Made by a program: the position numbers and the translations under genes
From: Candidatus Heimdallarchaeota archaeon
GTDB taxonomy: Archaea > Asgardarchaeota > Heimdallarchaeia > Hodarchaeales > Hodarchaeaceae
Direction: 5' to 3'
NCBI GenBank assembly: GCA_020353515.1
Contig: CP070695.1
Coordinates: 3,456,050-3,520,049 of the forward strand
DNA length: 64,000 bases
Part shown: piece after piece, positions 36,896 to 56,078 of the stretch
How the letters are laid out: each line of letters opens with the position of its first letter
Numbering within the stretch: position 1 is the stretch's first letter
The notes under the pieces: generated by a model
What the model was told of the DNA's origin: nothing
Database searches by the model: none
Seen by the model: only the letters and a program-made list of their open reading frames with translations

Positions 36896-39484
36896 ATGAA
36901 CCAGTTATATTCTAGTTTGAAGCCATATTATGAAAAATTTCTTATCAGGGGTAAATCTTATGGATTATCCTCTCATGAAATTCATGAAATGGCGCTAAAC
37001 CTGTTTATAAAACTTCTGGGTGTTATTATTCTCATATCATGTAATGGTAAGACTGAGGAAAACGGGAACTCTTTGATCAATTTACAAAAAACTAGAAAGT
37101 CAATTCATGAAATCTTATTTCAAAATGATTTACTAACTTCACAACTATTCCCAAATGGAATTCCTCCTATTTTGAATGAATTGCTTGAATTATCTCATCA
37201 AGAGATCCAATTCAAGGATTCTTTATCACCTAAAGAATGGGATACACTCATCGAGCTACTGTTAAAGCAACAATGGACTTTTGCTGAAGATTTTGATGAT
37301 ATTGTGAAAGAAACTCCAAATTCTCCAGGATTTTTATCATATTTTTATGAAAATGTTCTAAATGATTTTGAGAATTTTTTTCGTTTAACTCCTAAAATTT
37401 CTAAAAGGAAACATAAAGGGGTCTTTTATACTCCATGGCGAATAATTCGTGAAATTACTGATAAATGTCTCGATCACCATGTTACAATTAACTCTCATTC
37501 AAAAACAACCAAGAAACTAAGTCTGAAAATATTGGATCCGAGTTGCGGGACTGGTTCTTTTCTTGTCTACACTGCTGAAAGTATTTTTCGACGTCTATGT
37601 AATAGGAAAGAATCGTACAAAATTCATCCACATATGATTGTAAATAGAAATATATATGGTATTGATCTTTCTCAAAGCAGTTTAACTGTTGCCAAATTCC
37701 GACTATTATTTTGGATCCTAAATTTAAATTTAAATTCTATTGATTCACTTCCCACATGGTTGTTTAGAAATATTTGTGTTGGTAACAGTCTATTTGGTCT
37801 TTATAAAGAAAGAATTCAATATCCTTTGGATTATTCAACAGCTTTGAAGCGAATTAATAGATTTCTAGATTTTAAAAAACAACAGGACTTGGTTTTGAAA
37901 GAGAATTGGCTAGAGACAAGTTTTCAGGTAAAAGAGGCAAGAAAAAAGCCTCATTTAAAGAATTCACACCAAAAAGCAATTCAGAGAGCAGAGAAAAATC
38001 TTCTGCGTCTTGTAAATACTTTTTATCAGAATTGGTTGAGAAAACGCCTATATAACTATCCACGTCCAGCACCAATAAAAATGAAAGATTTAGAAATAGT
38101 TACTCCATTCCATTGGAGCATAGCTTTTCCTGAAGTGGTTCTTAAAGGTGGGTTTGATGTAGTAATAGGAAATCCTCCCTATGGAAGGTCAATTCTTAAC
38201 AAAATTGAGAAATCCATGCTTAAATTAATATATAAAGCATGTTCAGGTAAGAATCCAAAAAAATATAGCCTAAATGCCGCTAGTGCTTTCATTGAAAGGT
38301 CAATTACTGTTTTAAAACAAAACGGAACACTTGGTTTGATTGTGCCTTTTTCCATTCTGCGAGTTGAGGAATTCGAAACACTTCGGGAATTCATGTTAGA
38401 AAGAACTATGATCTGGAAAATTAATGATGAATCAGCAGCGTTCGCTGATGTTACTCTGGAAATGTGTTCCATATTCTTGACTAAAAGAGTTGAATCTGAT
38501 TATGAAGTTTCCATAAGTCCTCGACCGAATATTCATGCAGAATCGGCCGTTCCGATTAGTATTTTTAAAAAATATAATCGTTTCATGATCTATTATAACA
38601 AGTTATGGGACAAAACTGTAGGTCAAGGATTAGTCCTAGATGGTGTTGTTAGTGGTGATTACGGAATTGATCATCGAATTCTAAAAAAAGATTTGAGTTC
38701 AGAATTTTCTGATAAATATCCAATATGTTATTTACACTCAGGACGGAGTGTTGCAAAATTCGCATTAAATCCTAAATATTTTCAATGGTCAAAACCTCAT
38801 CCTACAAATGAGAGATTTTCTATTTATTTTCGAGAACCTCGACTTGTTAACACTGCTATTGGTAATCGATTCCGGGTTGCTTATAAACCAGAAAAAATTG
38901 TACCTGGTACTAATGTTTCAATTCTAGAAATTAATCCTTCATACCACTATTTCCCCATGTTAATTTTATTAAACTCTGATCTCATTAATTATCTTTTAAA
39001 GAGATATATTCTCAATTTTAGTCATTTAACGGTTTACCTTCACAAATATTATACTAAATTGATTCCTATCAAGTATCCACATGATTTTGAACAAGAATTT
39101 TCAACACTTGCTAGTTATCTCCTTTTTCTGAATCAGGCATACCTTTGTGGAAAACTAGCTCAGGATAAGCGAACAGATTATTTACTTAATTTAGCGAATT
39201 ATTTAGTTTATGATTTGTATTTTCCAGAAATTTTAGGGATTTCATCAAATTTAGCTGTTAATGTGGGAAAATACTTGAAATCTATAGATATAGAGTCCTT
39301 TCTGGATCTGATACTTTTTCAGGAATCTGAAACCGATCGGGAACGCTTATCATTAGTCATTTCTTCCAATTGGCAGATTATACAAAAGGTTACTAATCAA
39401 TTACGAAGAGATGAAGAAATACGTAAGCACAAAAAGACAATATTTAACCACAAAATTGTAAGACGTATATCTAAAGAGCTCTAA
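36896..39484 (+). CDS. Eco57I/TaqI-like DNA amino-methyltransferase, large
   Basis: RKHKGVFYTP, ILDPSCGTGSFL, NIYGID, FHWSIAFPEV, GGFDVVIGNPPY, LILLNS. Confidence 0.9.
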   Translation: MNQLYSSLKPYYEKFLIRGKSYGLSSHEIHEMALNLFIKLLGVIILISCNGKTEENGNSLINLQKTRKSIHEILFQNDLLTSQLFPNGIPPILNELLELSHQEIQFKDSLSPKEWDTLIELLLKQQWTFAEDFDDIVKETPNSPGFLSYFYENVLNDFENFFRLTPKISKRKHKGVFYTPWRIIREITDKCLDHHVTINSHSKTTKKLSLKILDPSCGTGSFLVYTAESIFRRLCNRKESYKIHPHMIVNRNIYGIDLSQSSLTVAKFRLLFWILNLNLNSIDSLPTWLFRNICVGNSLFGLYKERIQYPLDYSTALKRINRFLDFKKQQDLVLKENWLETSFQVKEARKKPHLKNSHQKAIQRAEKNLLRLVNTFYQNWLRKRLYNYPRPAPIKMKDLEIVTPFHWSIAFPEVVLKGGFDVVIGNPPYGRSILNKIEKSMLKLIYKACSGKNPKKYSLNAASAFIERSITVLKQNGTLGLIVPFSILRVEEFETLREFMLERTMIWKINDESAAFADVTLEMCSIFLTKRVESDYEVSISPRPNIHAESAVPISIFKKYNRFMIYYNKLWDKTVGQGLVLDGVVSGDYGIDHRILKKDLSSEFSDKYPICYLHSGRSVAKFALNPKYFQWSKPHPTNERFSIYFREPRLVNTAIGNRFRVAYKPEKIVPGTNVSILEINPSYHYFPMLILLNSDLINYLLKRYILNFSHLTVYLHKYYTKLIPIKYPHDFEQEFSTLASYLLFLNQAYLCGKLAQDKRTDYLLNLANYLVYDLYFPEILGISSNLAVNVGKYLKSIDIESFLDLILFQESETDRERLSLVISSNWQIIQKVTNQLRRDEEIRKHKKTIFNHKIVRRISKEL

Positions 39485-40750: not shown

Positions 40751-41854
40751 ATGATGGAAAATGTAACCAGAGTTTTCTTAATAGATGATTCAGCGATTGT
40801 ACGTCAACAGATCTCACAAATGATCATGAATAGTGAGAAAAATATCATAGTTGTAGGTACCGCAATGAATGGGCGAATAGCACTAGAAAAAATGATACTA
40901 CCAAGAAATAAAGCTGATGTTGTAATAATAGATGTTGTTATGCCTGAGATGGATGGAATAGAGACTATTAATCATATTATGGATCGGTTTCCCACTCCTG
41001 TTATTGTTATCTCTGCTTTGAAAAAGAAAAAGGAGATTGATGTTGCACTATCGGAACTTGGAGTAGCTGCTTTTGAATCTGGCACTGTAGAGTTTGTTAG
41101 AAAACCAGACCCTTGGATTCCTAATGATAAAGAACGATTTAAAAATGAATTAATCCTTAAGATTGAAAACCTAGCAAAAATTGATTTCTTAAAAATTTTC
41201 TCAATTTTCAACATAGAATCCTTAGTAAAAGAAGAAGCGATAGCAAAACCTTTAATAAAGGAACCTTCACAAGTCATTTTAAATAGACATCGTGCTAAGA
41301 TAATCGTTATTGGAGCTTCGACGGGGGGTCCTCGTGCAATTTCGATGATATTTTCTATGTTACCCAATAATTTCCCTCCAATTCTTGTTATTCAACATAT
41401 GCCAATAGGTATGGTTAAACCGTGGGTAACCAGATTGAAAAAGATGTACTCAAATTTAATGATTGAAGTCGCGAATAATGGAGTATTACTAAGACCAAAT
41501 CATATTTATATCGCTCCTTCGGGAAAACACTGTCTAGTTAATCACAATAAAAGAATAAAACTTGAATCTGGAGAAAAAGTGAATTTTGTTATTCCTTCAG
41601 CTGATGTCACCTTTAAATCAGTTGCAGAAGTTTTTGGGAAGGATTCACTTGGGATTATACTTACAGGTATGGGGCAAGATGGCTGTCGAGGAGCACGTAT
41701 TATCAAAGATTCAGGTGGCAAAATAATAGCTGAGGATGAATCCACTAGTATAATTCCTTCAATGCCAAAGGCTGTAATTGAAGGGGAGCTTGCAGATAGA
41801 ATTTCACCTTTGCACAAAATCCCAACATCAATCAGAGGATTAGGTTGGATCTAA
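40751..41854 (+). CDS. cheB: Chemotaxis methylesterase CheB (REC plus methylesterase), paralogue 1
   Basis: IDDS, DVVMPEMDG, GASTGGP, IQHMP, ILTGMGQDG. Confidence 0.93.
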   Translation: MMENVTRVFLIDDSAIVRQQISQMIMNSEKNIIVVGTAMNGRIALEKMILPRNKADVVIIDVVMPEMDGIETINHIMDRFPTPVIVISALKKKKEIDVALSELGVAAFESGTVEFVRKPDPWIPNDKERFKNELILKIENLAKIDFLKIFSIFNIESLVKEEAIAKPLIKEPSQVILNRHRAKIIVIGASTGGPRAISMIFSMLPNNFPPILVIQHMPIGMVKPWVTRLKKMYSNLMIEVANNGVLLRPNHIYIAPSGKHCLVNHNKRIKLESGEKVNFVIPSADVTFKSVAEVFGKDSLGIILTGMGQDGCRGARIIKDSGGKIIAEDESTSIIPSMPKAVIEGELADRISPLHKIPTSIRGLGWI

Positions 41855-41869
41855 GTGGAATTTTTTCTT

Positions 41870-43054
41870 CTAATTTTTTCGTTGGTATATCCTATTGTGA
41901 GCATTAATGACTTCAAACTTATCTTTAACTTCCGAAGGAAGGAGCTCACACTTCCCAAGCACTAGGAATCCACGGGTTTTTAGAACGGAATGAAATCGTT
42001 GAAAAAGTGAAATACTTTGAGGTTTTGAAAAATATATCAGAACATTTCTACACATAATTAAATCGAAATCTTTAGCTGGAGGAGGAGTTCGGAGATCATG
42101 TCTTTTAAAGGTTACTAAGTTTTTAATTTGAGGAGATAGTTCATACTCATCTTGATTTATAAGTCTAAAGAAATTTCGAATTACTGATGGATTCATTTCA
42201 TCGAAATAATCTTTTGTGTACTGTGCTTCTTTAGCTTGCGATAAAAAATCTTGTGAAATATCCGTCGCAAGAATGTGAATATTTTTCTCCTTTGATTTCC
42301 TGTTTTGCTTTTTAATCATGATAGCAATACTATAAGGTTCTGGACCGATAGCACAACCCGCACTCCAAATCCGAACTTTTTTAGTTCTATTCAAAATATG
42401 AGGTAGAATTTCATTCTCTAGAACATCAAAAAGTTCTTTGTCGCGAAAAAATCGAGTTACGTTGACTGATAAACAATCAACAAGTACATTAAGTTCATTT
42501 GGATTATGCTCTAAAAATTTCCGATAATCAAAATAAGATGGTGTTTTTACCTTCCTCATGCGAAAATGCAATCGTCTTAGAAAATAGTTTTCTTTATATG
42601 CTTGATAATTAATTTTCTTCTTTGAAAGGAAATCCATTACCAATGGAAGATGTTGTTGGTCAGTAGGGTCTTTAACCTTAAAAATTACTTGTATTTTTTT
42701 CAGATCTATCCTTTTACGTCTTTTTTTCTTTTTTTCTTTTTCTGAAGTCACATTAACGAAGTTATTAAGGCTTTTTCTTTGTCTTTTAGGATGTAAAGGT
42801 GAAAGGTGGTGTTTATGTTCCCCCTCCAACATTGAAAATAATTTTTCAGAGGATTCCTGATTCTTTTCGACGTGTTCAAGTAGTTCAGTATAGCTCTTAA
42901 AACCCAGTTCTCTTTTCAACCGTAACAGTCTTTTCTTGATTTTTCCCTCATCCCAAAGCGCATCACCAGTGTTTTGCATAACGAATTTGATAAGATCCTC
43001 GAATCCTTCATCTGATTCTAAACTTATCTGGAACTTCTTATAATCGTTTTGCAT
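41870..43054 (-). CDS. cheR: Chemotaxis methyltransferase CheR with N-terminal extension
   Basis: NVTRFFRD, RIWSAGCAIGPEPYSIA, ILATDIS, FDLIMCRNVLIYF. Confidence 0.95.
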   Translation of the reverse strand: MQNDYKKFQISLESDEGFEDLIKFVMQNTGDALWDEGKIKKRLLRLKRELGFKSYTELLEHVEKNQESSEKLFSMLEGEHKHHLSPLHPKRQRKSLNNFVNVTSEKEKKKKRRKRIDLKKIQVIFKVKDPTDQQHLPLVMDFLSKKKINYQAYKENYFLRRLHFRMRKVKTPSYFDYRKFLEHNPNELNVLVDCLSVNVTRFFRDKELFDVLENEILPHILNRTKKVRIWSAGCAIGPEPYSIAIMIKKQNRKSKEKNIHILATDISQDFLSQAKEAQYTKDYFDEMNPSVIRNFFRLINQDEYELSPQIKNLVTFKRHDLRTPPPAKDFDLIMCRNVLIYFSKPQSISLFQRFHSVLKTRGFLVLGKCELLPSEVKDKFEVINAHNRIYQRKN

Positions 43055-43210: not shown

Positions 43211-43864
43211 TTATATTATTGAGCTTTCTTCACCAAACAGAGATTTCATGAATTCTTCAAATGTCTCTAAGTGGGGGACAATAGCTAAATCTACAGCGAT
43301 ATTTCTCTCAGAAGTAAATACATCACATTCGATAAACAAGACTGATTTCACATTCTTTCGAATATCATCTAATTCATGTTCGGCACAAGATACCAAGGTA
43401 CCAATACGAAGTTTAGGCGGTGAGGGGAAAGAATTCGCTTTTAGAAAATAATTTAGAGCTTCAATATATTTTAATGAGAGTATAGAACCAGTCTCTTTGA
43501 TTAATGAGCGAAATAATGGAGGTAATCCTCTAATATCGTGAATCTCGTCTGTTTGTTGAGAAGTCATTAGATCTATAATTTTTTTAACGCTTTCCCAGTC
43601 AAAAAAGACTAAGATGGTGTATAATAGATCACTAACAGTAACAGAAGATATTATTGCTAATTCTTGATCGATTGGCATTCCTATAATCCCAGGGATATCT
43701 TGTAATTGTTTTAGAGCTACTTTAGGAATACTCATATATGTTGACCGATTTAGAAATTGAGTCAGGGCAATTGCTGCGTGCCCTGCGCCTATGTTTCCAA
43801 CTTCTTGAAGAGCATCAAGGTGAAAATCTGATAATTTCTCCATTTGAAAATCTGTATCATGCAT
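43211..43864 (-). CDS. cheC: CheY-P phosphatase CheC
   Basis: DALQEVGNIGAGHAAIAL; second site reads SLIKETGSIL; overlaps the cheA stop. Confidence 0.9.
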   Translation of the reverse strand: MHDTDFQMEKLSDFHLDALQEVGNIGAGHAAIALTQFLNRSTYMSIPKVALKQLQDIPGIIGMPIDQELAIISSVTVSDLLYTILVFFDWESVKKIIDLMTSQQTDEIHDIRGLPPLFRSLIKETGSILSLKYIEALNYFLKANSFPSPPKLRIGTLVSCAEHELDDIRKNVKSVLFIECDVFTSERNIAVDLAIVPHLETFEEFMKSLFGEESSII

Positions 43865-45746
43865 GTACTTTTGCCTCCAAGAAATTCATTGGATCGATTA
43901 TTAACACTACTTTGCCTCCTTCTAACACGGTTGCACTTGAGAACGCGCCTATTTGGCTGAGGAAGTTTTGAATGGGTTTCATAACTACTTCACGTTCTCC
44001 CAATAATTCATTTACTAGGAATCCTAAACTACGATTCCCTTTTCGCCATAGAACCACTATTTCTTTCTGTACATCTTTATGACCAGTTTCAATTTCAGAC
44101 TCAATTTGTAATGAATGAAACTTCAAACGTTCACGTAAGTCAATGATAGGAACTGATGTGTTATCAACAATAATGGATTTTGAGGTGGTTTCTGGATCAA
44201 TTAGAATTTTACGAACTGGAACAGAAAGGATTTGTTCAATATTGGCCATAGGGATTGCAAATTGATACTTTTTAACTGATAACATCAATACTTTTGTAAT
44301 AGCTACTGATAATGGTATAACGAGTCGGAAGGAGGTAAATTTTCCTGGTTCCGAATCAACCTCAATATTTCCACCAACAGACTCCATAGTGGATTTTACA
44401 ACACTGAGTCCAACTCCTCTACCAGAAATTTCAGTCGTTTCTTCTGCAGTTGTGAAACTACTGTCAAATAATAGTGAATGTAAATCGTTTTTTGTCAATA
44501 TAGCTCCTGGAATAACTAATCCTTTCTTTTCTGCTTTTTCACGAATTTTCTCATAATCAATTCCACGACCATTGTCTCGCACTTCGATGATTATATCAGA
44601 ACGTTCATGAGTCACTGTAAGCTTTATCATTCCCATTGGTTCCTTATTCTTTTTGACTCTTTCTTCAGGTATTTCTATCCCATGACTGAGTGCATTTCTA
44701 AGCAAATGGTTAAGTGGATCAACTAGTTTCTCAATCACTGAGCGATCAACTCCAATATTTCTCCCAGTAACAATGAAATCGACATGTTTTCCTTCTTTTT
44801 GGCTTAAATCACGAATCATTCGTGGGTAGCGTGTGAGTATTGTCTCTAAAGGAACCAAACGCATTCTTATAACGAGGTCTTGGATGTTAGCTATTGTTCT
44901 TTCAAAGTTAGATAAGTTCTCCTTAAATGACCTAGAGTAGGCTTGTTGCTCCCCAATCTCTCTGATGAATTGACCAGAAACCACCAGATCACCTAATAAC
45001 CTTATAATGTGATCCAAGTCTTCAAGATTGACTCTGACAGTTAGTGCTTCTTGAGATTCTTCTATCCCTCCAGATTTTTCAGTAGTTGTAACTGATTCTA
45101 AAATACGTGATACATTGACAGAAACAACATCAGGCGCTTCTTCGACGATCTGATTAATAACCTCTTCATCTTCTTGTGTAGTTATCTCAATAATTAATTC
45201 TTTAAATGAAGCTCCTGCTTCAATTTCTTCAAGGGGAGGTATAGTACTATTTACACTTGACTTTTCCTGGAGCTTTTTGACAAGAACTAGACTCCTAGCA
45301 CTGACTACTTTACAATCTGGACTGTAAAAAACCCTAATTTGAAGTTTACTCCCCAAATTTATCATGAATTCATCAATCGAAGCCATTTGCTGGGTCAATT
45401 CATCAAAGTGGAGAGCTTCGGGAGTTTTCCCACCTTTTAAGGATTTAGAAAATCTCTCTAGTTCATCGACATATGTAAACAACAGTTTTAATACGTTTGA
45501 AATATTTGTTTCCTCTGCATCAGTAACAAGATTTTCCATACTATGAGTAAGCGAACTAATCTTCGGATATCCTGATAAAGAGAAAAGACCCTTAAGATTA
45601 TGAAGCACTCTAAGTATAACTTCATATGCTTCTTTCTTTGTTGGATCCTTTTCAAGAACCAACAAACCTGAATTCAATTCCTCGATTCTTTCTGTTAGTT
45701 CGAGGATCATGACTTTTTTGAATTCTTCTGATTCAAATTCACTCAA
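43857..45746 (-). CDS. cheA: Chemotaxis histidine kinase CheA
   Basis: Hpt HNLKG, P2, dimerisation domain, HLLRNALSHGIE, DNGRGID, SGRGVGL, C-terminal CheW-like P5. Confidence 0.96.
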   Translation of the reverse strand: MSEFESEEFKKVMILELTERIEELNSGLLVLEKDPTKKEAYEVILRVLHNLKGLFSLSGYPKISSLTHSMENLVTDAEETNISNVLKLLFTYVDELERFSKSLKGGKTPEALHFDELTQQMASIDEFMINLGSKLQIRVFYSPDCKVVSARSLVLVKKLQEKSSVNSTIPPLEEIEAGASFKELIIEITTQEDEEVINQIVEEAPDVVSVNVSRILESVTTTEKSGGIEESQEALTVRVNLEDLDHIIRLLGDLVVSGQFIREIGEQQAYSRSFKENLSNFERTIANIQDLVIRMRLVPLETILTRYPRMIRDLSQKEGKHVDFIVTGRNIGVDRSVIEKLVDPLNHLLRNALSHGIEIPEERVKKNKEPMGMIKLTVTHERSDIIIEVRDNGRGIDYEKIREKAEKKGLVIPGAILTKNDLHSLLFDSSFTTAEETTEISGRGVGLSVVKSTMESVGGNIEVDSEPGKFTSFRLVIPLSVAITKVLMLSVKKYQFAIPMANIEQILSVPVRKILIDPETTSKSIIVDNTSVPIIDLRERLKFHSLQIESEIETGHKDVQKEIVVLWRKGNRSLGFLVNELLGEREVVMKPIQNFLSQIGAFSSATVLEGGKVVLIIDPMNFLEAKVHA

Positions 45747-45809: not shown

Positions 45810-46169
45810 CTAATTTAGCGCTCCTTCAATTGCTTGGACTAATTGGTCAACTTTGAATGGTTTAATAACAAAGTCCTTTGCACCAATTTTCAAAGCTTGT
45901 CGGACAAGGGGTTCATGTCCTAGCGCAGTTACTATTACGATTCTTGCCTCTGGATCCATTTCCATGATTTCTTTGACAGCCATTAACCCATTCATCTTTG
46001 GCATAACAACGTCCATTGTCACGACATTTGGCATGAATTGCTTGTAATGGTCAATAGCTTCGATCCCTGTTTCTGCCTCTGCAACAACTGTATGACCGTG
46101 CTTTTTCAGTATTTTTCGAATCATCAACCGTAGATATTTCGAATCATCTACAATCAATACTTTTGCCAT
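45810..46169 (-). CDS. cheY: Chemotaxis response regulator CheY
   Basis: VLIVDDS, TMDVVMP, VTALG, FVIKPF; stand-alone receiver next to cheA. Confidence 0.93.
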   Translation of the reverse strand: MAKVLIVDDSKYLRLMIRKILKKHGHTVVAEAETGIEAIDHYKQFMPNVVTMDVVMPKMNGLMAVKEIMEMDPEARIVIVTALGHEPLVRQALKIGAKDFVIKPFKVDQLVQAIEGALN

Positions 46170-46175
46170 AGTTAT

Positions 46176-49100
46176 TCAATCCTTTTCTTTTCTTTGTTCT
46201 TTTTTCATCCTTTTTAGTAGTGTTTTAATATTCTTTTTTGATATTATCTCTTCTAGAAACTCATTTTCAATAACATGTATTGTAGATAAGATTTTTTCGT
46301 AAGAAAATACATGTTTACAAGTTTTTTTACCCTCCAAAAAGATATTTGAGTCCTCACAAGGAATTAACTCTTCTTTGAACTTTGTTATTACACCTTCGAT
46401 ATCATCTGCAGGAACTAAGAATGAGAGATTCTCAAACTCTAGTAAAAAGAGAAAGCTGTTGTCTTGATACTCTGTCTGATTCTGAGAGTTAAAGACTAAC
46501 GCTGATAAATCAATGACAGGAAGTGTGCTATTGTTTTCCTCAGCAATACCGATTATTGGAAAAAACGTAGTATCTATCTTTTTCCAATTTAATGAACTTA
46601 AAACTCTTCTAACGAAAGTAACGTCAATTGAGAGGGTATAATGTTGTAATTTAAAAACAAAATAGTCTAAACGAATACCTTCGTGCCTATAGAATAACAG
46701 TAATTCGAGATCTTTGCGCTTAGATTTAACTTCCTCAAGAAATTTAACCTCTTTAGGAAGAAGGGTTGAAGAAAATTCTTTTGTATCTTTTAATGATAAT
46801 GTATTCTGAAGAACTGCTCTAATTTTCATATATAGAGAATCTGGATTCATTATCATACCAAGTGCACCGTTGTATGAAAAAAATCCAGAAATGATTGGTG
46901 AAAGGGTATTTCTTGAAAGCCCTAAACTGTTTTGGTAGATTTCACAATTTTCAATTGTAATTTTATCCAAAATGTTATCGACTAGGAGAACAGCTTCTGT
47001 ATTACTCTTAGGGTCATTTATTAGAATTCCAACTGATTTTTTCGCATTGTTACCATTCTTTTCTCTTAAAATAGTGTTGAAATCAATAAGTGGAACAATA
47101 TTAGTATGTATAGTTGCCCCTTTGATTGCATCATGGGGAAACTCTTTGAATAAAAAGGAGTTCTCCTCAATGACTTGGATAACATTTTGGGAATTTAGCA
47201 AGAAGATATGTCCTTTATCCTCAAATAAGTATCCTTCTTGTATTATATCATAACTTTGATGGATGGATTCTTGAACAGGATTCTTGAAGTATAGGATCTG
47301 GTCACTTTCTTGTTCTAATAAAATAGGATTATTAGCTATATGGAATAGATATTCAGCATTTAATATCAAAATAATCTGTTCTGATGGAGTAAGCATTAAA
47401 CCTTGTATGATATGGAGTGGAAAATCTCCCTCAGCCGATGAAAGGATAGGTCGAAGAGAATTCTCATCGATTTCGATTATTGATAGAATTTTATCGGTAA
47501 AGAGAGCGATATGTTGATCTTTAACCTCAAGGATCAGAACCTCATTTGAAGTCAGAGGTGTGGGTGTTGAATTCGATTTTAGTACCTCAGCTAAATTCAG
47601 GACAGAGATCACGCTTCCCCTGTAATTTGTTGATCCAATAATTGCTTTAGGCGCGTTAGGTACCTTTGTAGTGCTAGTAATATTGAAGATCTCACTAATA
47701 TATATGTTTGGAACCAAGATGTTTAAATTTCCAACTGAAACCAGTGTTCCTTTGTGTTTAAGATTGTGAGAAGAACTTACAACTTGTTTTGGTTTTAATT
47801 CTATAATTGACCTCTGAACTGGGATATTTTGTTTGAGATTAATATTTAATTCTTCAGAAGTGTCAAGTGACTTAAATGGAACTAAAAGAGTCTGATTTTC
47901 CACAGTAAATTGGGTTTGCATTTGTTCAAGTTCATAAACGATCCGATTGAGAATTTCTTGGTGGTCAAGCTGGACTACTATTTGATCATTGTATAGAAAT
48001 GCACCTGGAAAAAATGAGACTTCATTAGTATTTGTCGAATTGACTAAACTAGTTAATTCTGATTCTTCAGGTTTACTGATGGATCCTAAGACCGACTCAA
48101 CCTGAAAAATTATAAACTTCCCCTTATTCTCCCCTACAATGTAATTTTTCGGCTTTTGGATCTGTTTCGTTGTTGAACTCAATAGTTCACCATAGAAGAA
48201 AGAGTGCAAATCGATAACTGGAACAATTTCGCCACGAAAAGTGGTAGAACCCACGAAATAAGGAGCACTATTAGCGATTGGTGTGATTGTCAATGTTTGT
48301 AGGATCTCGATCACACAAGAGCACTTTATCGCATAAATGATATCCAATAATGTGATTAACACAAGAGCATTTTCATCCAAAGATGATTGCTTAATAGCTC
48401 TCGACTTCAAGATGTCTTCAGCATTGTAGATAGTAAAGAAGATTACTGGTTTTTCATAGTTAATTACAGAAAGATCAGAAATAGCCTGAAAAAAATAGTT
48501 GACATTTAAGACTAATATAATGTTTCCTGAGCGGTCTAACATGACCCCTTGGAAATAATACGTGAGATCCTTCTCTTTCGTAGGCCCAACAGCAGGATGT
48601 AGATCAGTTTCGATCATTTCTACTATTTCATGGAACTCATCAACAATGATGGCAACCTGTTGGTCTATGGATTCAAGAATGATTGCTTGAACATCATCTT
48701 GTTTTCTTACTATTTTCTTCCTTTCACTAGAGGAAGGTACTAATATTTCAGTAAGATCTAAAACACTAATGACTTTACCACGGAAATTAATTGTACCTAC
48801 AACAGCTTTTGGTGCATTTGGTACCTTGGTAACGCTTTGAACATTAAAAATCTCTATTATACGATTGTTTGGGATTAGTATGTCTAGTTCCTGAACCGAA
48901 ACCAATGTTGCAGTATTTGTGGTTTTTTTGGTATCCTTCAAGGCTCTTTGGAAACCTCTATCTGTCGCACTTGGTACTGGTACAGAAAGTTTTTGACGGA
49001 GATCGATATTATATTCTTCAGGAACCCCTAGTAGCTCAATGGGAACTAAGAGAGCTTGGTTTTCAATCACAAACTGAGTTTGTGTATTCTCAAGGTCGTA

Positions 49101-49628
49101 AACAACTCGCTCTAGGATTTGGTTATCGTCTAATAAGACAATAATCTGATCTATATTAGAAAGAAATGCCTTAACAAAATAAGAATTCTCTTCCGGATTA
49201 GCAAAATTCACTAAATTTGTTACTTCTGATTCTTCAGGTTTCTTTATAGAACCTAGAACAGTTTCAACCTGAAAAATAACAATTTTCCCCGTATGTTCTA
49301 GTGCAATGTAATTATTTTGATTTTCGGAACGTCTTGTTGACAAATTTAGTAATCCCCCATAAAAGAAGGACTGTAAATCAATGACTGGAACAATCTCACC
49401 ACGAAAAGTAGTAGAACCAACAAAATAGGGAACACTATTAGCCACTGGTGTGATTGGTAGTGTTTGAAGGATTTGGATTACAGATGAACTAAAAAGTGCA
49501 TAGTTGTTATCAAGTAAGGTGAAAAGGAGGAGATTATCTTCTTGTTGATTCCTTGAAGTTTTCTTGATTTTTTTTGTTTTTAAAATTATCTTCACCCCTT
49601 TGTGATATTTTCCTTCTATACTACTCAT
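46176..49628 (-). CDS. cheW: Multi-CheW protein with six CheW domains
   Basis: Four clear CheW units (FRGEIVPVIDL twice, FRGKVISVLDL, YRGSVISVLNL) and two divergent units (IVPLIDF, TLPVIDL). Confidence 0.85.
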   Translation of the reverse strand: MSSIEGKYHKGVKIILKTKKIKKTSRNQQEDNLLLFTLLDNNYALFSSSVIQILQTLPITPVANSVPYFVGSTTFRGEIVPVIDLQSFFYGGLLNLSTRRSENQNNYIALEHTGKIVIFQVETVLGSIKKPEESEVTNLVNFANPEENSYFVKAFLSNIDQIIVLLDDNQILERVVYDLENTQTQFVIENQALLVPIELLGVPEEYNIDLRQKLSVPVPSATDRGFQRALKDTKKTTNTATLVSVQELDILIPNNRIIEIFNVQSVTKVPNAPKAVVGTINFRGKVISVLDLTEILVPSSSERKKIVRKQDDVQAIILESIDQQVAIIVDEFHEIVEMIETDLHPAVGPTKEKDLTYYFQGVMLDRSGNIILVLNVNYFFQAISDLSVINYEKPVIFFTIYNAEDILKSRAIKQSSLDENALVLITLLDIIYAIKCSCVIEILQTLTITPIANSAPYFVGSTTFRGEIVPVIDLHSFFYGELLSSTTKQIQKPKNYIVGENKGKFIIFQVESVLGSISKPEESELTSLVNSTNTNEVSFFPGAFLYNDQIVVQLDHQEILNRIVYELEQMQTQFTVENQTLLVPFKSLDTSEELNINLKQNIPVQRSIIELKPKQVVSSSHNLKHKGTLVSVGNLNILVPNIYISEIFNITSTTKVPNAPKAIIGSTNYRGSVISVLNLAEVLKSNSTPTPLTSNEVLILEVKDQHIALFTDKILSIIEIDENSLRPILSSAEGDFPLHIIQGLMLTPSEQIILILNAEYLFHIANNPILLEQESDQILYFKNPVQESIHQSYDIIQEGYLFEDKGHIFLLNSQNVIQVIEENSFLFKEFPHDAIKGATIHTNIVPLIDFNTILREKNGNNAKKSVGILINDPKSNTEAVLLVDNILDKITIENCEIYQNSLGLSRNTLSPIISGFFSYNGALGMIMNPDSLYMKIRAVLQNTLSLKDTKEFSSTLLPKEVKFLEEVKSKRKDLELLLFYRHEGIRLDYFVFKLQHYTLSIDVTFVRRVLSSLNWKKIDTTFFPIIGIAEENNSTLPVIDLSALVFNSQNQTEYQDNSFLFLLEFENLSFLVPADDIEGVITKFKEELIPCEDSNIFLEGKKTCKHVFSYEKILSTIHVIENEFLEEIISKKNIKTLLKRMKKEQRKEKD
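47290..49540 (-). repeat. Intragenic tandem duplication of about 1.17 kb (CheW domains 1+2 duplicated as 3+4)
   Basis: Near-identical DNA ccacgaaaagt.gtagaacc.ac.aaata.gg..cactattagc at about 48232 and about 49400; boundaries approximate. Confidence 0.75.
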
Positions 49629-49646: not shown

Positions 49647-50549
49647 TTATTCATTCTCTTCGCTTTTGTTTCCTTTTTTGGATTTCTTGGTCACTTTAGC
49701 CTTTTCTGTCCCTTTTGTTTCCTCTTTTCCTTTTGATTTATCCCCTTCTCTGGAATCTTTTTCGATTTTGGCCTCATCTTTCTTTTTAGTTAACTTTTTG
49801 GTCTTTTTTACTTTCTTTGTTTCAGAATTGTCTTTTGATAAGTTTTCATCACCTCCCTTGGTATCAGCATCAACCTTATTAAGAAGCCTTTGATCAAATT
49901 CATCAGTTTGAAGATTATCTGGTAGATTTAGTTGATCCATATCAAAATTGGCTGATTTATCTGATGAGGATTTCTCTGATGCTTCATCGGGATCAGGTAA
50001 GGTGTATTGATCAAAATCAAAATCGAAATCTTCATCACTAGTCATTTTTCTTCCCGAAGTTTTTGAAGTAACAAAATCTCCTAAGAGTCCCTCTAAATCT
50101 AAAATGAAAATAGTCTGCCCATTTTTTAGTAATCCAATTTTAGAAACTAGAGATGGATTTAACAATTCTTTTCCTTGGAAATATGAATTATTTGCTGATT
50201 TAAATTCTGTAATTGTATCTAATTGATGGATCTGATCTACTAAAATACCAATATCTTGGTCTTTAATTGTTACCAATAAAATAACATTAGAATTAGTATT
50301 ACTTGATATTTCATCCTTTTCACGAGAGTCTTTTCCCCAAAGGAGTACAGAGAGGTTAAATATACTAACAATATATCCACGTAGATTAACGATTCCTTCC
50401 AAGACTGAGGAAGTTCTAGGCAGCTTCAAAATATTCCTAGTTTGGAATACTTCCTTAAGATAATGTACTTCAATGCCATAAAGATCATTAGAAATTCGAA
50501 ATATAAGATGTCTATTTTTCACTTTTTCAGCTTGCATTACTGTTGTCAT
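49647..50549 (-). CDS. cheW: CheW with a long acidic then Lys-rich C-terminal tail
   Basis: LIFRI..DLYGI, GIVNLRGYIVSIFNL, IGILVDQI; about 140-aa low-complexity tail. Confidence 0.9.
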   Translation of the reverse strand: MTTVMQAEKVKNRHLIFRISNDLYGIEVHYLKEVFQTRNILKLPRTSSVLEGIVNLRGYIVSIFNLSVLLWGKDSREKDEISSNTNSNVILLVTIKDQDIGILVDQIHQLDTITEFKSANNSYFQGKELLNPSLVSKIGLLKNGQTIFILDLEGLLGDFVTSKTSGRKMTSDEDFDFDFDQYTLPDPDEASEKSSSDKSANFDMDQLNLPDNLQTDEFDQRLLNKVDADTKGGDENLSKDNSETKKVKKTKKLTKKKDEAKIEKDSREGDKSKGKEETKGTEKAKVTKKSKKGNKSEENE

Positions 50550-50557
50550 TCCTTAAA

Positions 50558-51301
50558 TCACCTTTTTGTATCAGTAAATCTTGAAAAGATAGAAAAGAAA
50601 TTCCTTAACTCAGTTGATTTTTCTTTTTTGATCTCCTGAGTAGTTCCTGAATATTCTGACTTGAGATATGTCGAGTCGGTTTCTTCCATGGCAAAAAGCT
50701 CCTTTTCAACCATCGCGTCTAGATCTATATCTTCCTCTTCTTCGTATTCATAAAATTGGGTTGTTGTTTCTAAAACAACGTTATCTATAATCTGGCCTAA
50801 TTCAGGGAAAATTGACATGTTTGGCCCATCCAAAGTTTTGTCACTAACAACGATATTAACCGAATCGAGAGGAGAATTAGACTCATACACAGGTACCGAG
50901 AGCATCATATGAATGGTTTCAAATATACGAGAAGAAAGTTCATTTACAATCTCAACAGATTTCATTGATGTTACACTGTCTAGGGGAAAATTACCAATTG
51001 TCAACAAGCAGGCTAAGTCTTTCTGACTTCTAACGAATATTCTGGTGCCTTCCCGTGTGCCAATATCATTTAACTCCATATTATTTCCTATCATTTCTCC
51101 AAATTGAACAATAGCGGCCATCAAACCAGCAATCAGTGTTGGATCTTTACCAGAAGTCTTTTTATAAACCCTGGAGAAAATAGGAAGACCACTACTCTTA
51201 TTTAGAAGTAAAATTTCATGTACAGATACCTTGACGTCCGCTTCCTCCGTTTGCTTATCATTTACATCCCCAAGTAATTTTTCGGCTGATATTTTTTTCA
51301 C
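50558..51301 (-). CDS. Longin-domain protein, first gene of the che operon
   Basis: VHEILLLNKSSGLPIFSRVY....DPTLIAGLMAAIVQFGEMI...LNDI....TRIFVR...LACLL, a classic longin pattern; 8 nt from the cheW start. Confidence 0.75.
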   Translation of the reverse strand: MKKISAEKLLGDVNDKQTEEADVKVSVHEILLLNKSSGLPIFSRVYKKTSGKDPTLIAGLMAAIVQFGEMIGNNMELNDIGTREGTRIFVRSQKDLACLLTIGNFPLDSVTSMKSVEIVNELSSRIFETIHMMLSVPVYESNSPLDSVNIVVSDKTLDGPNMSIFPELGQIIDNVVLETTTQFYEYEEEEDIDLDAMVEKELFAMEETDSTYLKSEYSGTTQEIKKEKSTELRNFFSIFSRFTDTKR

Positions 51302-51706: not shown

Positions 51707-52801
51707 TTAAATCCAACCATGTTTGTGAATTAATATCGGGATTTTATGTAATGGTATGATTTCATCAGCATATTTTCCTTCGATAATCGCTTTTGGCATG
51801 GATGGAATAACACAGGTAGATTCATGCTCAGCAAATATTTTTCCCCCGACAGACTTAATCTTCTCTGCACCTAAAAATCCATCTTTTCCCATCCCAGTAA
51901 GAACAATACCAAGAACATTTTTTTTATATACCCTAGCAGCATCAACAAAAGTAACATCAATAGCAGGTATGACAAAATTTATCCTTTCATCAATGAATAG
52001 ACGAAAGGTCTTATCTCTATTAATACCACAATGTTTTCCACCAGGGGCTATATAGACACGATTTGGTAAGATTTTTTCTTTATTATTTGGAATTTTGATA
52101 ATAAGATGAGGATATAAACTCTGTAATCTTTTCACCCAAGGATCTACCATTTGTTCTGGCATATGTTGTACTACTATAATTGGTGGAGATTTGACTGGAA
52201 TTTTTGAAAGTATTAACGAAATTGCACGAGGACCCCCCGTCGAAGCTCCTATTACTAATAATAAATCACTAAATTGTTCTGATATTACTTCAGACTTTGC
52301 TTCTACAGTAGGTTTTGTTTCTTCTTCTTGTAAAAAAGTTTTGAAATCAAAACCTGCATAGGCACGAGCTAAATCTATTTGAGAAAGGTTAGAAATTTTG
52401 TAGAATAATTCTCTTTTAAACCGATTAACATCATTTAGAACCATTGGATCTGGTTTTTTAACAAATTCTACTCCACCAGACTCAAAAACTGACATACCTA
52501 TGTTAGAAAGAGAACGATTCACTTCTCTTTTTGATAGGCCAGAAATCATGATTACTGGAGTAGGAAATCGATCCATAATGTGCTTAATGGTCTCGAAACC
52601 GTCCATTTCAGGCATTATAGCATCAACAAGTACAACATCAGGGGAATATTTGGGTAAAGCCATTTTCATTAAAGCTATTTTACCATTTGGAGCTCCCCCG
52701 ATGACTTCTATGTTTCTTTGACTATCAATGATCATTTTGGTTATTTGATGTCTAATAACTGCTGAATCATCGATTAAAAAGACCTTTATTACTCCTTTCA
52801 T
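51707..52801 (-). CDS. cheB: Chemotaxis methylesterase CheB, paralogue 2
   Basis: IDDS, DAIMPEMDG, GASTGGP, VQHMP, VLTGMGKDG; colinear with 40751..41854. Confidence 0.93.
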   Translation of the reverse strand: MKGVIKVFLIDDSAVIRHQITKMIIDSQRNIEVIGGAPNGKIALMKMALPKYSPDVVLVDAIMPEMDGFETIKHIMDRFPTPVIMISGLSKREVNRSLSNIGMSVFESGGVEFVKKPDPMVLNDVNRFKRELFYKISNLSQIDLARAYAGFDFKTFLQEEETKPTVEAKSEVISEQFSDLLLVIGASTGGPRAISLILSKIPVKSPPIIVVQHMPEQMVDPWVKRLQSLYPHLIIKIPNNKEKILPNRVYIAPGGKHCGINRDKTFRLFIDERINFVIPAIDVTFVDAARVYKKNVLGIVLTGMGKDGFLGAEKIKSVGGKIFAEHESTCVIPSMPKAIIEGKYADEIIPLHKIPILIHKHGWI

Positions 52802-52944: not shown

Positions 52945-53700
52945 TTAATAAAAACCGTCAAGAAACGCCCGTACATTTTTTCCGAGAACATAATGATTAT
53001 ATCCTCCCTCTAACACTCCAAATCGCCTACATGAGCCTTGATCTTCAGAATATTCGCGGATAATTTTACCGATTGATTTATAATCTTCCGTCGTTAATAA
53101 TCCCCCCCAATCTTTTTCATGCCTATCAAAACCAGCTGATACTCCAATTATATCAACTTCAGAGAGGTCAGAAAGAAATCTCCTCACATTTTGAACAAAT
53201 TGATCTCGTGACCTCCCTTCTACATGATAATATTCCACATTTTGCGAATTACGAAAAGTATTATGTGTTCCATCTCCAAAATGTAGATCAAAATCAATAA
53301 TTACTGCTTTAGATATTTGATTCTCTGATATAAGTCTTTTGATTGCAATAGCGATGTTATTGAAATAACAAAATCCCCAAAATCCTTCAGGACTGGCATG
53401 ATGTCCTGGTGGTCGTATCAAAGCAAACATTGGTTCATTATGATTACAAGCGTAATCACTAGCTAAGATTGCACCTCCAGCTGCTAGTAATGCTATAGCA
53501 TAAACTCGAGAGTTTTTCACACGTAAAAGATGATTTTCTGTATGAACTAATAAAATATCATTATCTATCGCTGGTTTAGGACTTTTTAAATTATAATCGT
53601 GCAAGTCCTCCACGATAGCTTCCATACGGCCTGAATCCGCAGCTGGATCAGAAGTATAAACCTTATAGTAGTCTTGGTGAAAAATGACATGCTTTTTCAT
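52945..53700 (-). CDS. Histone deacetylase/AcuC family protein
   Basis: RPPGHHA, GFCYFNNIAIA, DFDLHFGDGT, VSAGFD, VLEGGY. Confidence 0.92.
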   Translation of the reverse strand: MKKHVIFHQDYYKVYTSDPAADSGRMEAIVEDLHDYNLKSPKPAIDNDILLVHTENHLLRVKNSRVYAIALLAAGGAILASDYACNHNEPMFALIRPPGHHASPEGFWGFCYFNNIAIAIKRLISENQISKAVIIDFDLHFGDGTHNTFRNSQNVEYYHVEGRSRDQFVQNVRRFLSDLSEVDIIGVSAGFDRHEKDWGGLLTTEDYKSIGKIIREYSEDQGSCRRFGVLEGGYNHYVLGKNVRAFLDGFY

Positions 53701-53717: not shown

Positions 53718-56078
53718 CTATTTTTTTCTAGTTTTTTCTTTTGCAAATCGCCAATATAATTCGAACTGTAAAATTTCGTGAATTTTTGTTACATCTCTAG
53801 AGTTCATTCCTAGACACTCTATAAGAACAAGATGATCAAGTTGGTTCACAAATTTTGAATAATCTGAAATTAATTTTTTTGTTGTAAGGATTGATTCTAT
53901 TTTTGTTTCTTTATGACTAGAAATACAAGCTTGAAATTGATTAATATGGTTTTTAGAAAGTTTTCTGGGATTTAATACCAGTAAATTTTGACATTCTTGC
54001 AGGGAGAGTTTAAGCGACCCAAGTCCGAGGGTTCTTGTACCCTGTATTTCCCTAAGTAATATCCCTAGAGTTGAATTTAAGAAACCAAGAAGAGGAAATA
54101 ACCAATCCTTGTTGTTTGCCCAAAAACCAATCCATTGCTTATCAATATGGAGTTCATCAGAATTATAGATAACAAAAGATCGTTTAAAACTCATATTCGG
54201 TATTAATATCTCTGGTTGTATTAATGGTACCTGATACCAATTCTCCTTTGTTCTATTCTTAAAATATGGACGTTTTAATATGTCATCCTGATTTTTATTG
54301 ATATAATCTTGTAGTTCATTTGGACTATCTTCTGTAAGTTTTCTAGGAATGTGAAGGAAATATCCTAATTCTTTGGATGGAGAGAAGATTGTACCCCATT
54401 CTTTAGGGGATTTTGTCATAAGATATAGGTTCTCTTTTGGAAAGTTAAATTGCTTCTTCAATTTCTTGGTAAAGTAAAAAAACCGATTAGCTCCCGTGGT
54501 TGATCCCATTTCTAGCTTTCCAAGATCTTTTAACAAACAAAATTGATCTTTTTTATCTTTTAGTAGTTTTATAAGATAAGAAGACATTGTAAGATAATCT
54601 AATCTTAAAAAAGGAAAAAGTTTCCTTGAATTCATCATTAAAGGAGTTAAATCAGAAATTAGAGAAATTCTATATAAATCAGTTTCCTTTGTTTGTATCT
54701 CAAATCGGATATTAGCAGGCTTAAAAGAAAGCTTTTCTAAATCCTTTGTGAAATTATGTATCCCAAACTGTAATAAAGACTTTAGAGAGTTTTTCCATAC
54801 AATTATGGTTGTATTTTTAAGTTCAGCTTTTTTATGAATCCTGTGTCCGATAACAATATGAGTTCGAATTTCTGCATTATCCCAAACTTCAAACGGTAAC
54901 TCTAAAATGAGATCTAAACAAAAAGATGTTAGAAAGATTTGTTTAAGTGGATTTGTATATCGAGAAGACAACCAAGCTCGAGATAAGACAAATGCGATTG
55001 TACCTCCTCCAACAACTTGCGTAATAGCTTTTAACCAAAAATAGATATATAAGTCTGCTTTTTTATCCCATTTGAGTGATATTTCTGAAAATAAATATTT
55101 GAAAAACTTTGAAATATCCTTTGTAGTTTTAATAGAAGTATTTTTAATTCCATGATGTCGAACATAAGGAGGATTTCCAATTATAATGTGAAATTTGTGA
55201 TGAGAGGATTTATCATCACTAAGAAAATCAGTTTCGAAGATTTGGAATTTTTTGATTAAAGAATTCAGTTTTTTTTCTGAAAATGTCTCGTTTGGAATAT
55301 ATTTCAGATATTGGTGTAGGAGTATAATCTTAGCACACTTGACAATACGAGAGTCAATATCATATCCATAAAGGCGTGAGAATAAAGTATTCATAATTTC
55401 TATCTTTTCTTCTGGTGATATATTAACATTTATTGGATTAGCAAGTATAATGGATAATAGGAGTCTACTCATTTCTGCAAGAAACATTCCTGTTCCACAG
55501 CTTGGATCTAAAATCCTAATACTCGCTATTCTATCAACAATTTGATAATTATCTATGAACTGATAATTTACAGGATATTTACCTCTAAAACTGAGTTCGT
55601 GAAGAGATTTATCATCTAGAGCAATATCCTTTCTGTTACTGAGAAATGAAAACAAAGCATAACGACATATTACCTTAATTTGATTCAAGGGAGTAAAAAA
55701 TATTCCAGATTTTTTTCGTTCATTTGGTTTTCTCAGATTTTCATGAAAATTTGAAAAGATATAAGGCTCAAGATGGTTCTTGTCGTCCTCAATTCTCTTT
55801 AAAAAAATCCACCACCAATCATCCTGATTTAAATAGCTTAGAAATGATTCATTCATTCGAAACTCAAAATAATGTTTAAGCCATTTTATTTCCCAATAAT
55901 TTGATCTTTTAGCTAACTGGACTAGATAAGTTTCTTTGTCTACGAAAAGGAACTGATTTAAACTTGGAAACAGAAATAAAATACTAAATGTTAGGCTGAA
56001 AAAGTTATATAACTCTGGCCATTTATGAGATTCTTTTGTTATATGCTTTAAACATTTAGTCCACTCATTCACTATCAT
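53718..56078 (-). CDS. Eco57I-like DNA amino-methyltransferase
   Basis: RKKSGIFFTP, ILDPSCGTGMFL, LYGYDID, IIGNPPYVRH, ADLYIYF, LGFLNS. Confidence 0.9.
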   Translation of the reverse strand: MIVNEWTKCLKHITKESHKWPELYNFFSLTFSILFLFPSLNQFLFVDKETYLVQLAKRSNYWEIKWLKHYFEFRMNESFLSYLNQDDWWWIFLKRIEDDKNHLEPYIFSNFHENLRKPNERKKSGIFFTPLNQIKVICRYALFSFLSNRKDIALDDKSLHELSFRGKYPVNYQFIDNYQIVDRIASIRILDPSCGTGMFLAEMSRLLLSIILANPINVNISPEEKIEIMNTLFSRLYGYDIDSRIVKCAKIILLHQYLKYIPNETFSEKKLNSLIKKFQIFETDFLSDDKSSHHKFHIIIGNPPYVRHHGIKNTSIKTTKDISKFFKYLFSEISLKWDKKADLYIYFWLKAITQVVGGGTIAFVLSRAWLSSRYTNPLKQIFLTSFCLDLILELPFEVWDNAEIRTHIVIGHRIHKKAELKNTTIIVWKNSLKSLLQFGIHNFTKDLEKLSFKPANIRFEIQTKETDLYRISLISDLTPLMMNSRKLFPFLRLDYLTMSSYLIKLLKDKKDQFCLLKDLGKLEMGSTTGANRFFYFTKKLKKQFNFPKENLYLMTKSPKEWGTIFSPSKELGYFLHIPRKLTEDSPNELQDYINKNQDDILKRPYFKNRTKENWYQVPLIQPEILIPNMSFKRSFVIYNSDELHIDKQWIGFWANNKDWLFPLLGFLNSTLGILLREIQGTRTLGLGSLKLSLQECQNLLVLNPRKLSKNHINQFQACISSHKETKIESILTTKKLISDYSKFVNQLDHLVLIECLGMNSRDVTKIHEILQFELYWRFAKEKTRKK

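Follow-up and report, generated by a model that had tools for sequence, protein, structure and literature searches.

CheW couples the tips of chemoreceptors to the P5 domain of the kinase CheA. Arrays hold mixed CheA/CheW rings and six-membered rings made only of CheW; in Escherichia coli, where R62 of CheW is a contact for both receptor and CheA, the CheW-only rings raise cooperativity (PMC13098124). Proteins that carry several CheW domains on one chain are known but almost unstudied: the literature recognises CheW.II, CheW.III and a rare CheW.IV (bioRxiv 10.1101/2022.05.07.491035), and the one experiment concerns the triple CheW of Vibrio cholerae, the single multi-domain CheW to have been studied, which links receptors to CheA in arrays (bioRxiv 10.1101/2022.05.07.491037). 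In Treponema denticola, three ring components impose P2 symmetry (PMC7666581). Here, we studied a protein with six CheW units, which we call poly-CheW, encoded in a stretch of 64,000 nucleotides (the window) from Candidatus Heimdallarchaeota archaeon, an Asgard archaeon of the Hodarchaeales (GenBank assembly GCA_020353515.1, contig CP070695.1, positions 3,456,050 to 3,520,049). Its gene occupies positions 46176-49628 of the window on the minus strand and encodes 1150 amino acids (aa) whose units fall, by open reading frame, Pfam and domain tree, into the order A-B-A-B-C-D. We lean, without much to spare, toward reading poly-CheW from its anatomy as a multivalent chemoreceptor-array scaffold in a lineage-specific Asgard chemosensory system.

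The span singled out by a first-pass annotation of the letters is exactly one open reading frame with an ATG start. Against Pfam, the whole protein matches CheW (PF01584) as its sole family, with 303.8 bits over six stretches, and when the six units are scanned separately all six exceed the PF01584 cut-off of 23.5 bits, which bears out the count of six made in that annotation. Units 1-4 clear the cut-off comfortably (57.8-83.3 bits), units 5 and 6 narrowly. Unit 1 (49089-49544, aa 29-180) is of type A by its clade, scores 57.8 bits at aa 33-174 and carries the Arg-Gly (RG) motif as FRGE; unit 2 (48465-48923, aa 236-388), of type B and likewise with RG, scores 83.3 bits at aa 242-382. Unit 3 (47925-48377, aa 418-568) is a second type A, with 66.8 bits at aa 423-562 and 62-64% identity to unit 1, and unit 4 (47319-47762, aa 623-770) a second type B, with 79.4 bits at aa 628-763 and 40-42% identity to unit 2. 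Unit 5, of type C (46809-47246, aa 795-940), scores 24.4 bits at aa 801-932, and is joined by a predicted helical linker (46677-46808, aa 941-984) to unit 6, of type D (46233-46676, aa 985-1132), which scores 26.9 bits at aa 989-1087, a match that covers just profile positions 2-98 of 138. The chain ends in a basic C-terminal helix (46179-46232, aa 1133-1150; helix 1134-1149 in the AlphaFold2 model). All of these features lie on the minus strand.

The conserved Arg-Gly region, which corresponds to the R62 region of E. coli CheW, separates the units cleanly. Units 1-4 read F/Y-R-G at this position (FRGE, FRGK), and units 5 and 6 read IHTN and EENN. The difference is common to the whole of types C and D across the family, RG being kept in A and B only; in the type C consensus, IHT replaces RG and a motif SGFFSY is conserved. 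The divergence of units 5 and 6 and their want of RG, both noticed in the first-pass annotation, are thus confirmed, as is its observation that units 1 and 2 recur as units 3 and 4. When pieces of the protein are compared, residues 15-381 match residues 406-763 at 51% identity (E 3e-113), and a 300-nt repeat, 72% identical and spaced 1167 nt apart, is still visible in the DNA; a BLASTP self-comparison of the entire protein gave the identity match only. We rejected an assembly artefact as the source of the repeat, since a Logan contig of 2249 nt from run X1, which may be the source sample of the genome, bridges both repeats (47204-49452) with no differences, and orthologues have the same architecture.

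Units 5 and 6, although divergent, are full CheW folds as modelled. In an AlphaFold2 model of aa 783-1150 (mean predicted local distance difference test, pLDDT, 82.7; predicted template modelling score, pTM, 0.49), unit 5 superposes on Thermotoga maritima CheW 2ch4_Y with Z 16.8 and a root-mean-square deviation of 2.8 A over 138 of 140 residues, and unit 6 on E. coli CheW 6s1k_C with Z 15.5 over 144 of 145 residues; the next unrelated folds score Z below 3. Profiles of the two types also reach solved CheW structures by sequence, type C that of T. maritima with E 0.005 and type D with E 7e-6. A fold search with the full-length model matched units 4 and 2 only (unit 4 against 2ch4_Y, Z 17.1; unit 2, Z 14.6), so that the CheW fold of two intertwined five-stranded beta barrels is recovered by superposition in units 2, 4, 5 and 6, and units 1 and 3 show the same strand pattern as the others at a pLDDT of about 75-85. 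The caveat of the first-pass annotation that units 5 and 6 might turn out not to be CheW folds therefore falls away. Because types C and D each keep conserved motifs of their own across orthologues, units 5 and 6 are not decaying copies.

The full-length AlphaFold2 model, judged by pLDDT and pTM and built on a shallow alignment of 26 sequences, has a mean pLDDT of 69.5 and a pTM of 0.35. Its six domains stand at pLDDT 75-88, and the linkers from A to B (190-237 and 578-623), from B to A (401-418) and from B to C (785-795) fall below 50. The region from C to D is of another kind, with helices at 929-978, a pLDDT of 80-87 and a column conservation of 0.61, against 0.56-0.58 for the C and D domains themselves. 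Taken at face value the model consists of confident beads, one structured linker and no confident global arrangement, and as far as it was tested the closure into a ring that the first-pass annotation had raised as a possibility gives way to beads on a string; we would call a ring unsupported by the model rather than disproved. Linker lengths stay within narrow limits throughout the family (A-to-B 53-58, B-to-A 29-40, B-to-C 23-28 and C-to-D 44-52 residues), which indicates that spacing matters.

Among 1.84 billion representative proteins, 26 family members score below E 1e-30. The closest homologues all come from Asgard metagenome-assembled genomes, the best being 77% identical and labelled Hodarchaeota. 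Outside the family, multi-CheW matches among the best 150 have at most four domains, often partial, at 24-31% identity over single domains; the longest fused CheW chains in the databases searched are those of this family. A tree of 161 domains resolves the units into types A (units 1 and 3), B (units 2 and 4), C (unit 5) and D (unit 6), with supports of 89, 90, 99 and 100, and the order A-B-(A-B)n-C-D is fixed across the family. Domains were counted with a hidden Markov model built from the six units. The commonest form is a four-domain A-B-C-D protein of about 750-790 aa (about 12 of the 50%-identity representatives); six-domain A-B-A-B-C-D proteins of about 1140-1170 aa account for four representatives and occur in 7 of the 16 genomes with the gene, and two of these proteins come from a distant family that is only 25-26% identical. 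A 1284-aa fragment, P0006, has at least seven domains and is N-terminally cut, beginning inside a B domain; a metagenome scan for relatives of P0006 found none. A four-domain gene and a six-domain gene coexist in one genome, and two four-domain genes in another. The five-domain form is a single 960-aa protein, B-A-B-C-D (locus L003, G010:C100, 322-3201); its gene begins 321 nt into the contig, too close to the edge for an A domain or a single cheW to precede it, and the protein may be a truncation, a frameshift or a real form.

Profile comparisons with hhalign place B closest to A (99.2%) and to the neighbouring single-domain CheW, W1 (98.6%), and C and D closest to A (about 97%); of the four types, B is the nearest to the ordinary CheW. 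Against CheA-P5, C reaches 74.9% and D 12%, and no type is specifically P5-like. An arrangement in which A and B, or C and D, alternate as mimics of P5 and CheW was accordingly rejected, all four types lying nearer to CheW types than to P5. Alignments of the types to E. coli CheW, at 15-20% identity, are unreliable for the ring-interface residues I65, R117, E121 and F122. Such sharply differentiated types, each with its own conserved motifs and held in a fixed order, could suit a baseplate in which CheA-P5, W1, A, B, C and D take non-equivalent ring positions through unique interfaces, giving a non-canonical arrangement of kinase and receptors. The CheW and the CheW-CheR-like protein of T. denticola offer a precedent (PMC7666581), and the receptors described below have one type of tip, so that receptor diversity does not explain domain diversity. 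However, a variable number of A-B modules fits fixed positions poorly, no type resembles P5, and the two models, with pTM of 0.35 and 0.49, give no support for interfaces between domains; we consider this arrangement unlikely, if the best placed of the alternatives.

A different possibility, and the one raised by the first-pass annotation, is that a covalently linked six-domain CheW could template a whole ring. The history of the A-B module bears on it directly. In an IQ-TREE phylogeny of 42 A-B modules, the deep branches of the genus-level group have one module throughout. In the clade of the window protein (P0001-P0005 and P0009), first and second modules form separate clades, with support of 100 for the first- and second-module clades of P0001-P0005; since the clades separate and the event predates orthologues that are 64-77% identical, the duplication is not very recent. 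P0010 and P0011 show a separate duplication, the modules of P0006 are each other's sisters (support 99; 83% and 66-77% identity), and a further pair, peculiar to the distant family, has diverged deeply, with 27% identity between the two A domains. The four-domain proteins P0015 and P0016 nest within the P0010/P0011 group, their A resembling the first A and their B the second B (support 95-100), a pattern that fits an in-register deletion of one module length. These trees point to three or more gains of the module and to one loss or more. A single origin of the second module within the genus was rejected by an approximately unbiased test, in which holding all genus-group second modules together, a group named after the tree had been seen, cost 40.8 log-likelihood units (p 0.0115). 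Gene conversion between modules could be an alternative to separate origins; on either account, the number of domains shifts readily, by one A-B module at a time.

This history goes hard with a covalent hexamer, in which W1 would serve the core units and the six linked domains of poly-CheW would close into one CheW-only ring, pre-assembling kinase-free hexagons. Six domains do occur in the window protein and in no fewer than six further genomes, the CheW-only rings of canonical lattices have six members (PMC13098124), the locus always encodes a canonical CheW as well, and the linkers of the window protein (24-55 residues) are each long enough, by an estimate, to reach a ring neighbour. Yet the domain number of orthologues is 4, 5, 6 or at least 7, and four is both the commonest value and the one found in the deepest genus lineages; gains have recurred, with one reversal from six to four; two of the six domains are without the Arg-Gly receptor-contact region; and the model has a pTM of 0.35 with low-confidence A-to-B linkers. 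We therefore think it rather improbable that this is what the protein does. Even for the six-domain forms a ring of six has a low probability, and the family is not built around it: six is one of several numbers that a changeable repeat has taken. The first-pass annotation had conceded that the number might be a coincidence of the recent duplication: six as a by-product of duplication stands, and "recent" does not. What survives of its interpretation overall is, in broad terms, a scaffold of the baseplate; the purpose-built hexamer finds no support in the tests that it had itself proposed. A broader scheme that we rate no higher than the covalent hexamer would give the Heimdall class a baseplate of six CheW-like types, four of them on one chain, with the number of A-B modules determining how large a non-canonical receptor complex is, or what geometry it has, and with this complex acting on a non-motor target; the six-domain form might then close a ring, and the four-domain form complete one with CheA-P5 and free CheW.

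The multivalent scaffold that we favour would work as follows. Domains A and B would be coupling domains that dock, in the manner of CheW, on receptor tips, on neighbouring CheW or P5 domains, or on both. A single chain would tie together several receptor trimers, replacing the cross-linking that separate CheW molecules provide in the CheW-only positions of bacterial arrays. The C-linker-D segment would be a fixed, structured end anchor for another partner and would not bind receptors in the canonical way. How many A-B modules a chain has would set valency and not ring closure, and the six domains of the window protein would represent one more A-B copy, not a hexamer design.

The distribution of the gene is that of a lineage-specific system. 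Among 400 Asgard genomes, 16 carry poly-CheW, all in the window's own class (Heimdall): its genus-level group contributes 11 of 21 genomes, and two other families contribute 4. In the genus group, CheA and poly-CheW are found in exactly the same 11 genomes. Several points weigh against the scaffold reading, however. CheA occurs without poly-CheW in two more families of the class, so that poly-CheW is not needed for Che signalling in general. The roles suggested for C and D are read only from their missing RG motif and their conservation. The shallow alignment of 26 sequences behind the AlphaFold2 model leaves room for a defined higher-order shape. Finally, neither CheF (PF04283) nor archaellin (PF01917) was found in the window genome, a single contig of 4.94 Mb that is 96% complete.

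The gene order single cheW, poly-cheW, cheY, cheA holds in every fetched locus that reaches far enough. In the window, W1 (49647-50549, minus strand), a single-domain CheW of 300 aa by Pfam and synteny, lies directly upstream of poly-CheW; it has a C-terminal extension of about 140 aa, and its orthologues range from 190 to 321 aa. Directly downstream follow cheY (45810-46169, minus; Pfam, synteny) and cheA (43857-45746, minus), whose product has the domains P1-P2-P3-P4-P5 and is the only CheA found in a search of the genome. Between the same pairs of genomes (L004, L005 and other loci compared with the window), CheY and CheA are 84-99% identical and poly-CheW 52-65%, from which it follows that the scaffold evolves much faster than the adjoining kinase and regulator. 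Beyond cheA lie a CheC-like phosphatase (43211-43864, minus; annotation search) and CheR (41870-43054, minus; Pfam), a protein of 394 aa in which about 145 extra residues precede CheR_N at the N-terminus. Two complete cheB genes flank the cluster: the first copy (51707-52801, minus; Pfam) is syntenic in relatives, and the second (40751-41854, plus; found by search) is transcribed divergently from the cluster. Most relatives' loci have one gene that matches both copies, and L004 and L005 carry both. A 251-aa gene of the histone-deacetylase family (52945-53700, minus) adjoins cheB and is syntenic in four relatives' loci at 64-75% identity. Paralogues of an Eco57I/MmeI-type N6-methylase, one of 862 aa (36896-39484, plus) and one of 786 aa (53718-56078, minus), bracket the chemosensory cluster, which may mark an island or may be chance. 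Elsewhere the genome holds one further lone CheW and four MCP-signal matches.

Upstream of W1 lies a gene of 247 aa (50558-51301, minus) that belongs to no Pfam or NCBIfam family and is conserved in the genus, where relatives have it in the same place at 46-84% identity. A search of the ESM Atlas gave a weak lead to Roadblock/LAMTOR2/longin-like clusters (0.87). Archaeal chemotaxis that steers the archaellum has CheF and archaellin, a combination that the window genome does not present, and CheF was found in 0 of 81 Heimdall-class genomes, 26 of which have CheA. The C-D module, conserved yet without RG, or the conserved disordered linkers might then recruit a non-Che partner, for example the 247-aa protein, and so link receptors to a target other than a motor; the absence of CheF from the 81 class genomes and of archaellin from the window genome, the conserved position of the 247-aa gene directly upstream and its Roadblock/longin lead all speak for such a hub. 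Against it, the lead scores below 0.9, no counterpart of the neighbour was detected in the distant family, where six-domain proteins likewise occur, and nothing physically ties the neighbour to poly-CheW. We think that a role of this kind has little probability.

The four MCP-signal matches comprise two intact chemoreceptors (G000:C1:749119-751041 and C1:2495177-2496358), a third receptor that is partly masked (C1:915140-915634) and a receptor fragment (C1:2359570-2359866). By a hydropathy scan, a crude predictor, the intact receptors have 2 and 4 hydrophobic segments. Their signalling domains are short, at about 200 aa: the tip lies some 103-108 residues from the C-terminus, which makes roughly 14-15 heptads in each arm. 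The two signalling domains are 72% identical to each other, with 57 of 66 residues the same at the tip. Genomes with six-domain proteins have 2-4 MCP matches against 1-7 in those with four-domain proteins, and a scaling of domain number with receptor repertoire was rejected on these flat counts, which come from a small sample of incomplete genomes. Since the tips are alike and the counts do not rise, domain diversity is not matched by receptor diversity, and although Vass et al. proposed unusual receptors as the partners of rare multi-domain CheW proteins (bioRxiv 10.1101/2022.05.07.491037), the notion that each domain type couples a different receptor class to one CheA, which the first-pass annotation had floated as the scaffolding of several receptor classes, can be given almost no credence in a genome with two such similar intact receptors and in a family whose six-domain genomes have no more receptor genes than others.

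For the ring hypothesis the outcome is sobering, in that six is not a conserved design. The family supplies a natural copy-number series in otherwise matching operons, with which the effect of covalent linkage and valency on array assembly and cooperativity could be tested. Its hosts, moreover, belong to the archaeal group nearest to eukaryotes, and their genomes are without the CheF link to the archaellum.

In the literature searched we found no description of Asgard poly-CheW proteins. The closest described systems are those of CheW.III (F9 systems, V. cholerae cluster I) and the rarer CheW.II and CheW.IV, in which, as here, a fused CheW-only protein is encoded beside CheA together with an ordinary single CheW (bioRxiv 10.1101/2022.05.07.491035 and 10.1101/2022.05.07.491037). 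Those proteins have two to four domains, whereas the Asgard family has four to at least seven; it is also set apart by its four fixed types, two of them without Arg-Gly, by a copy number that changes by A-B pairs and by its archaeal host. The window protein does not fit CheW.III, which has three domains and soluble receptors in double-layer arrays: the V. cholerae array is cytoplasmic, whereas the intact receptors here have predicted membrane segments, the third receptor being partly masked. A second likeness is to the CheW-only hexameric rings of E. coli (Cassidy 2015; Pinas 2022, reviewed in PMC13098124), in which receptor trimers are likewise cross-linked by CheW domains additional to those of the core unit and where the number six matches. 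The E. coli rings consist of six identical free CheW molecules; the units of poly-CheW are covalently joined and of four types, two without RG, and their count is not conserved.

The F2 arrays of T. denticola (PMC7666581) resemble this system in having more than two kinds of CheW-like domain, for which unique ring interfaces and a special lattice have been proposed. There, however, two CheW domains sit on separate proteins, one of them fused to a CheR-like domain, and no poly-CheW chain exists. CheA proteins with two or three CheW domains (the F5 class and others; bioRxiv 10.1101/2023.09.19.558490) provide an independent case of CheW duplication within one polypeptide, but the F5-class duplications sit inside the kinase, and the CheA of this locus has a single P5. 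Multi-domain CheW is thus itself known; what the Asgard family adds is its extension to six or more domains, four differentiated domain types and a copy-number series of the A-B module.

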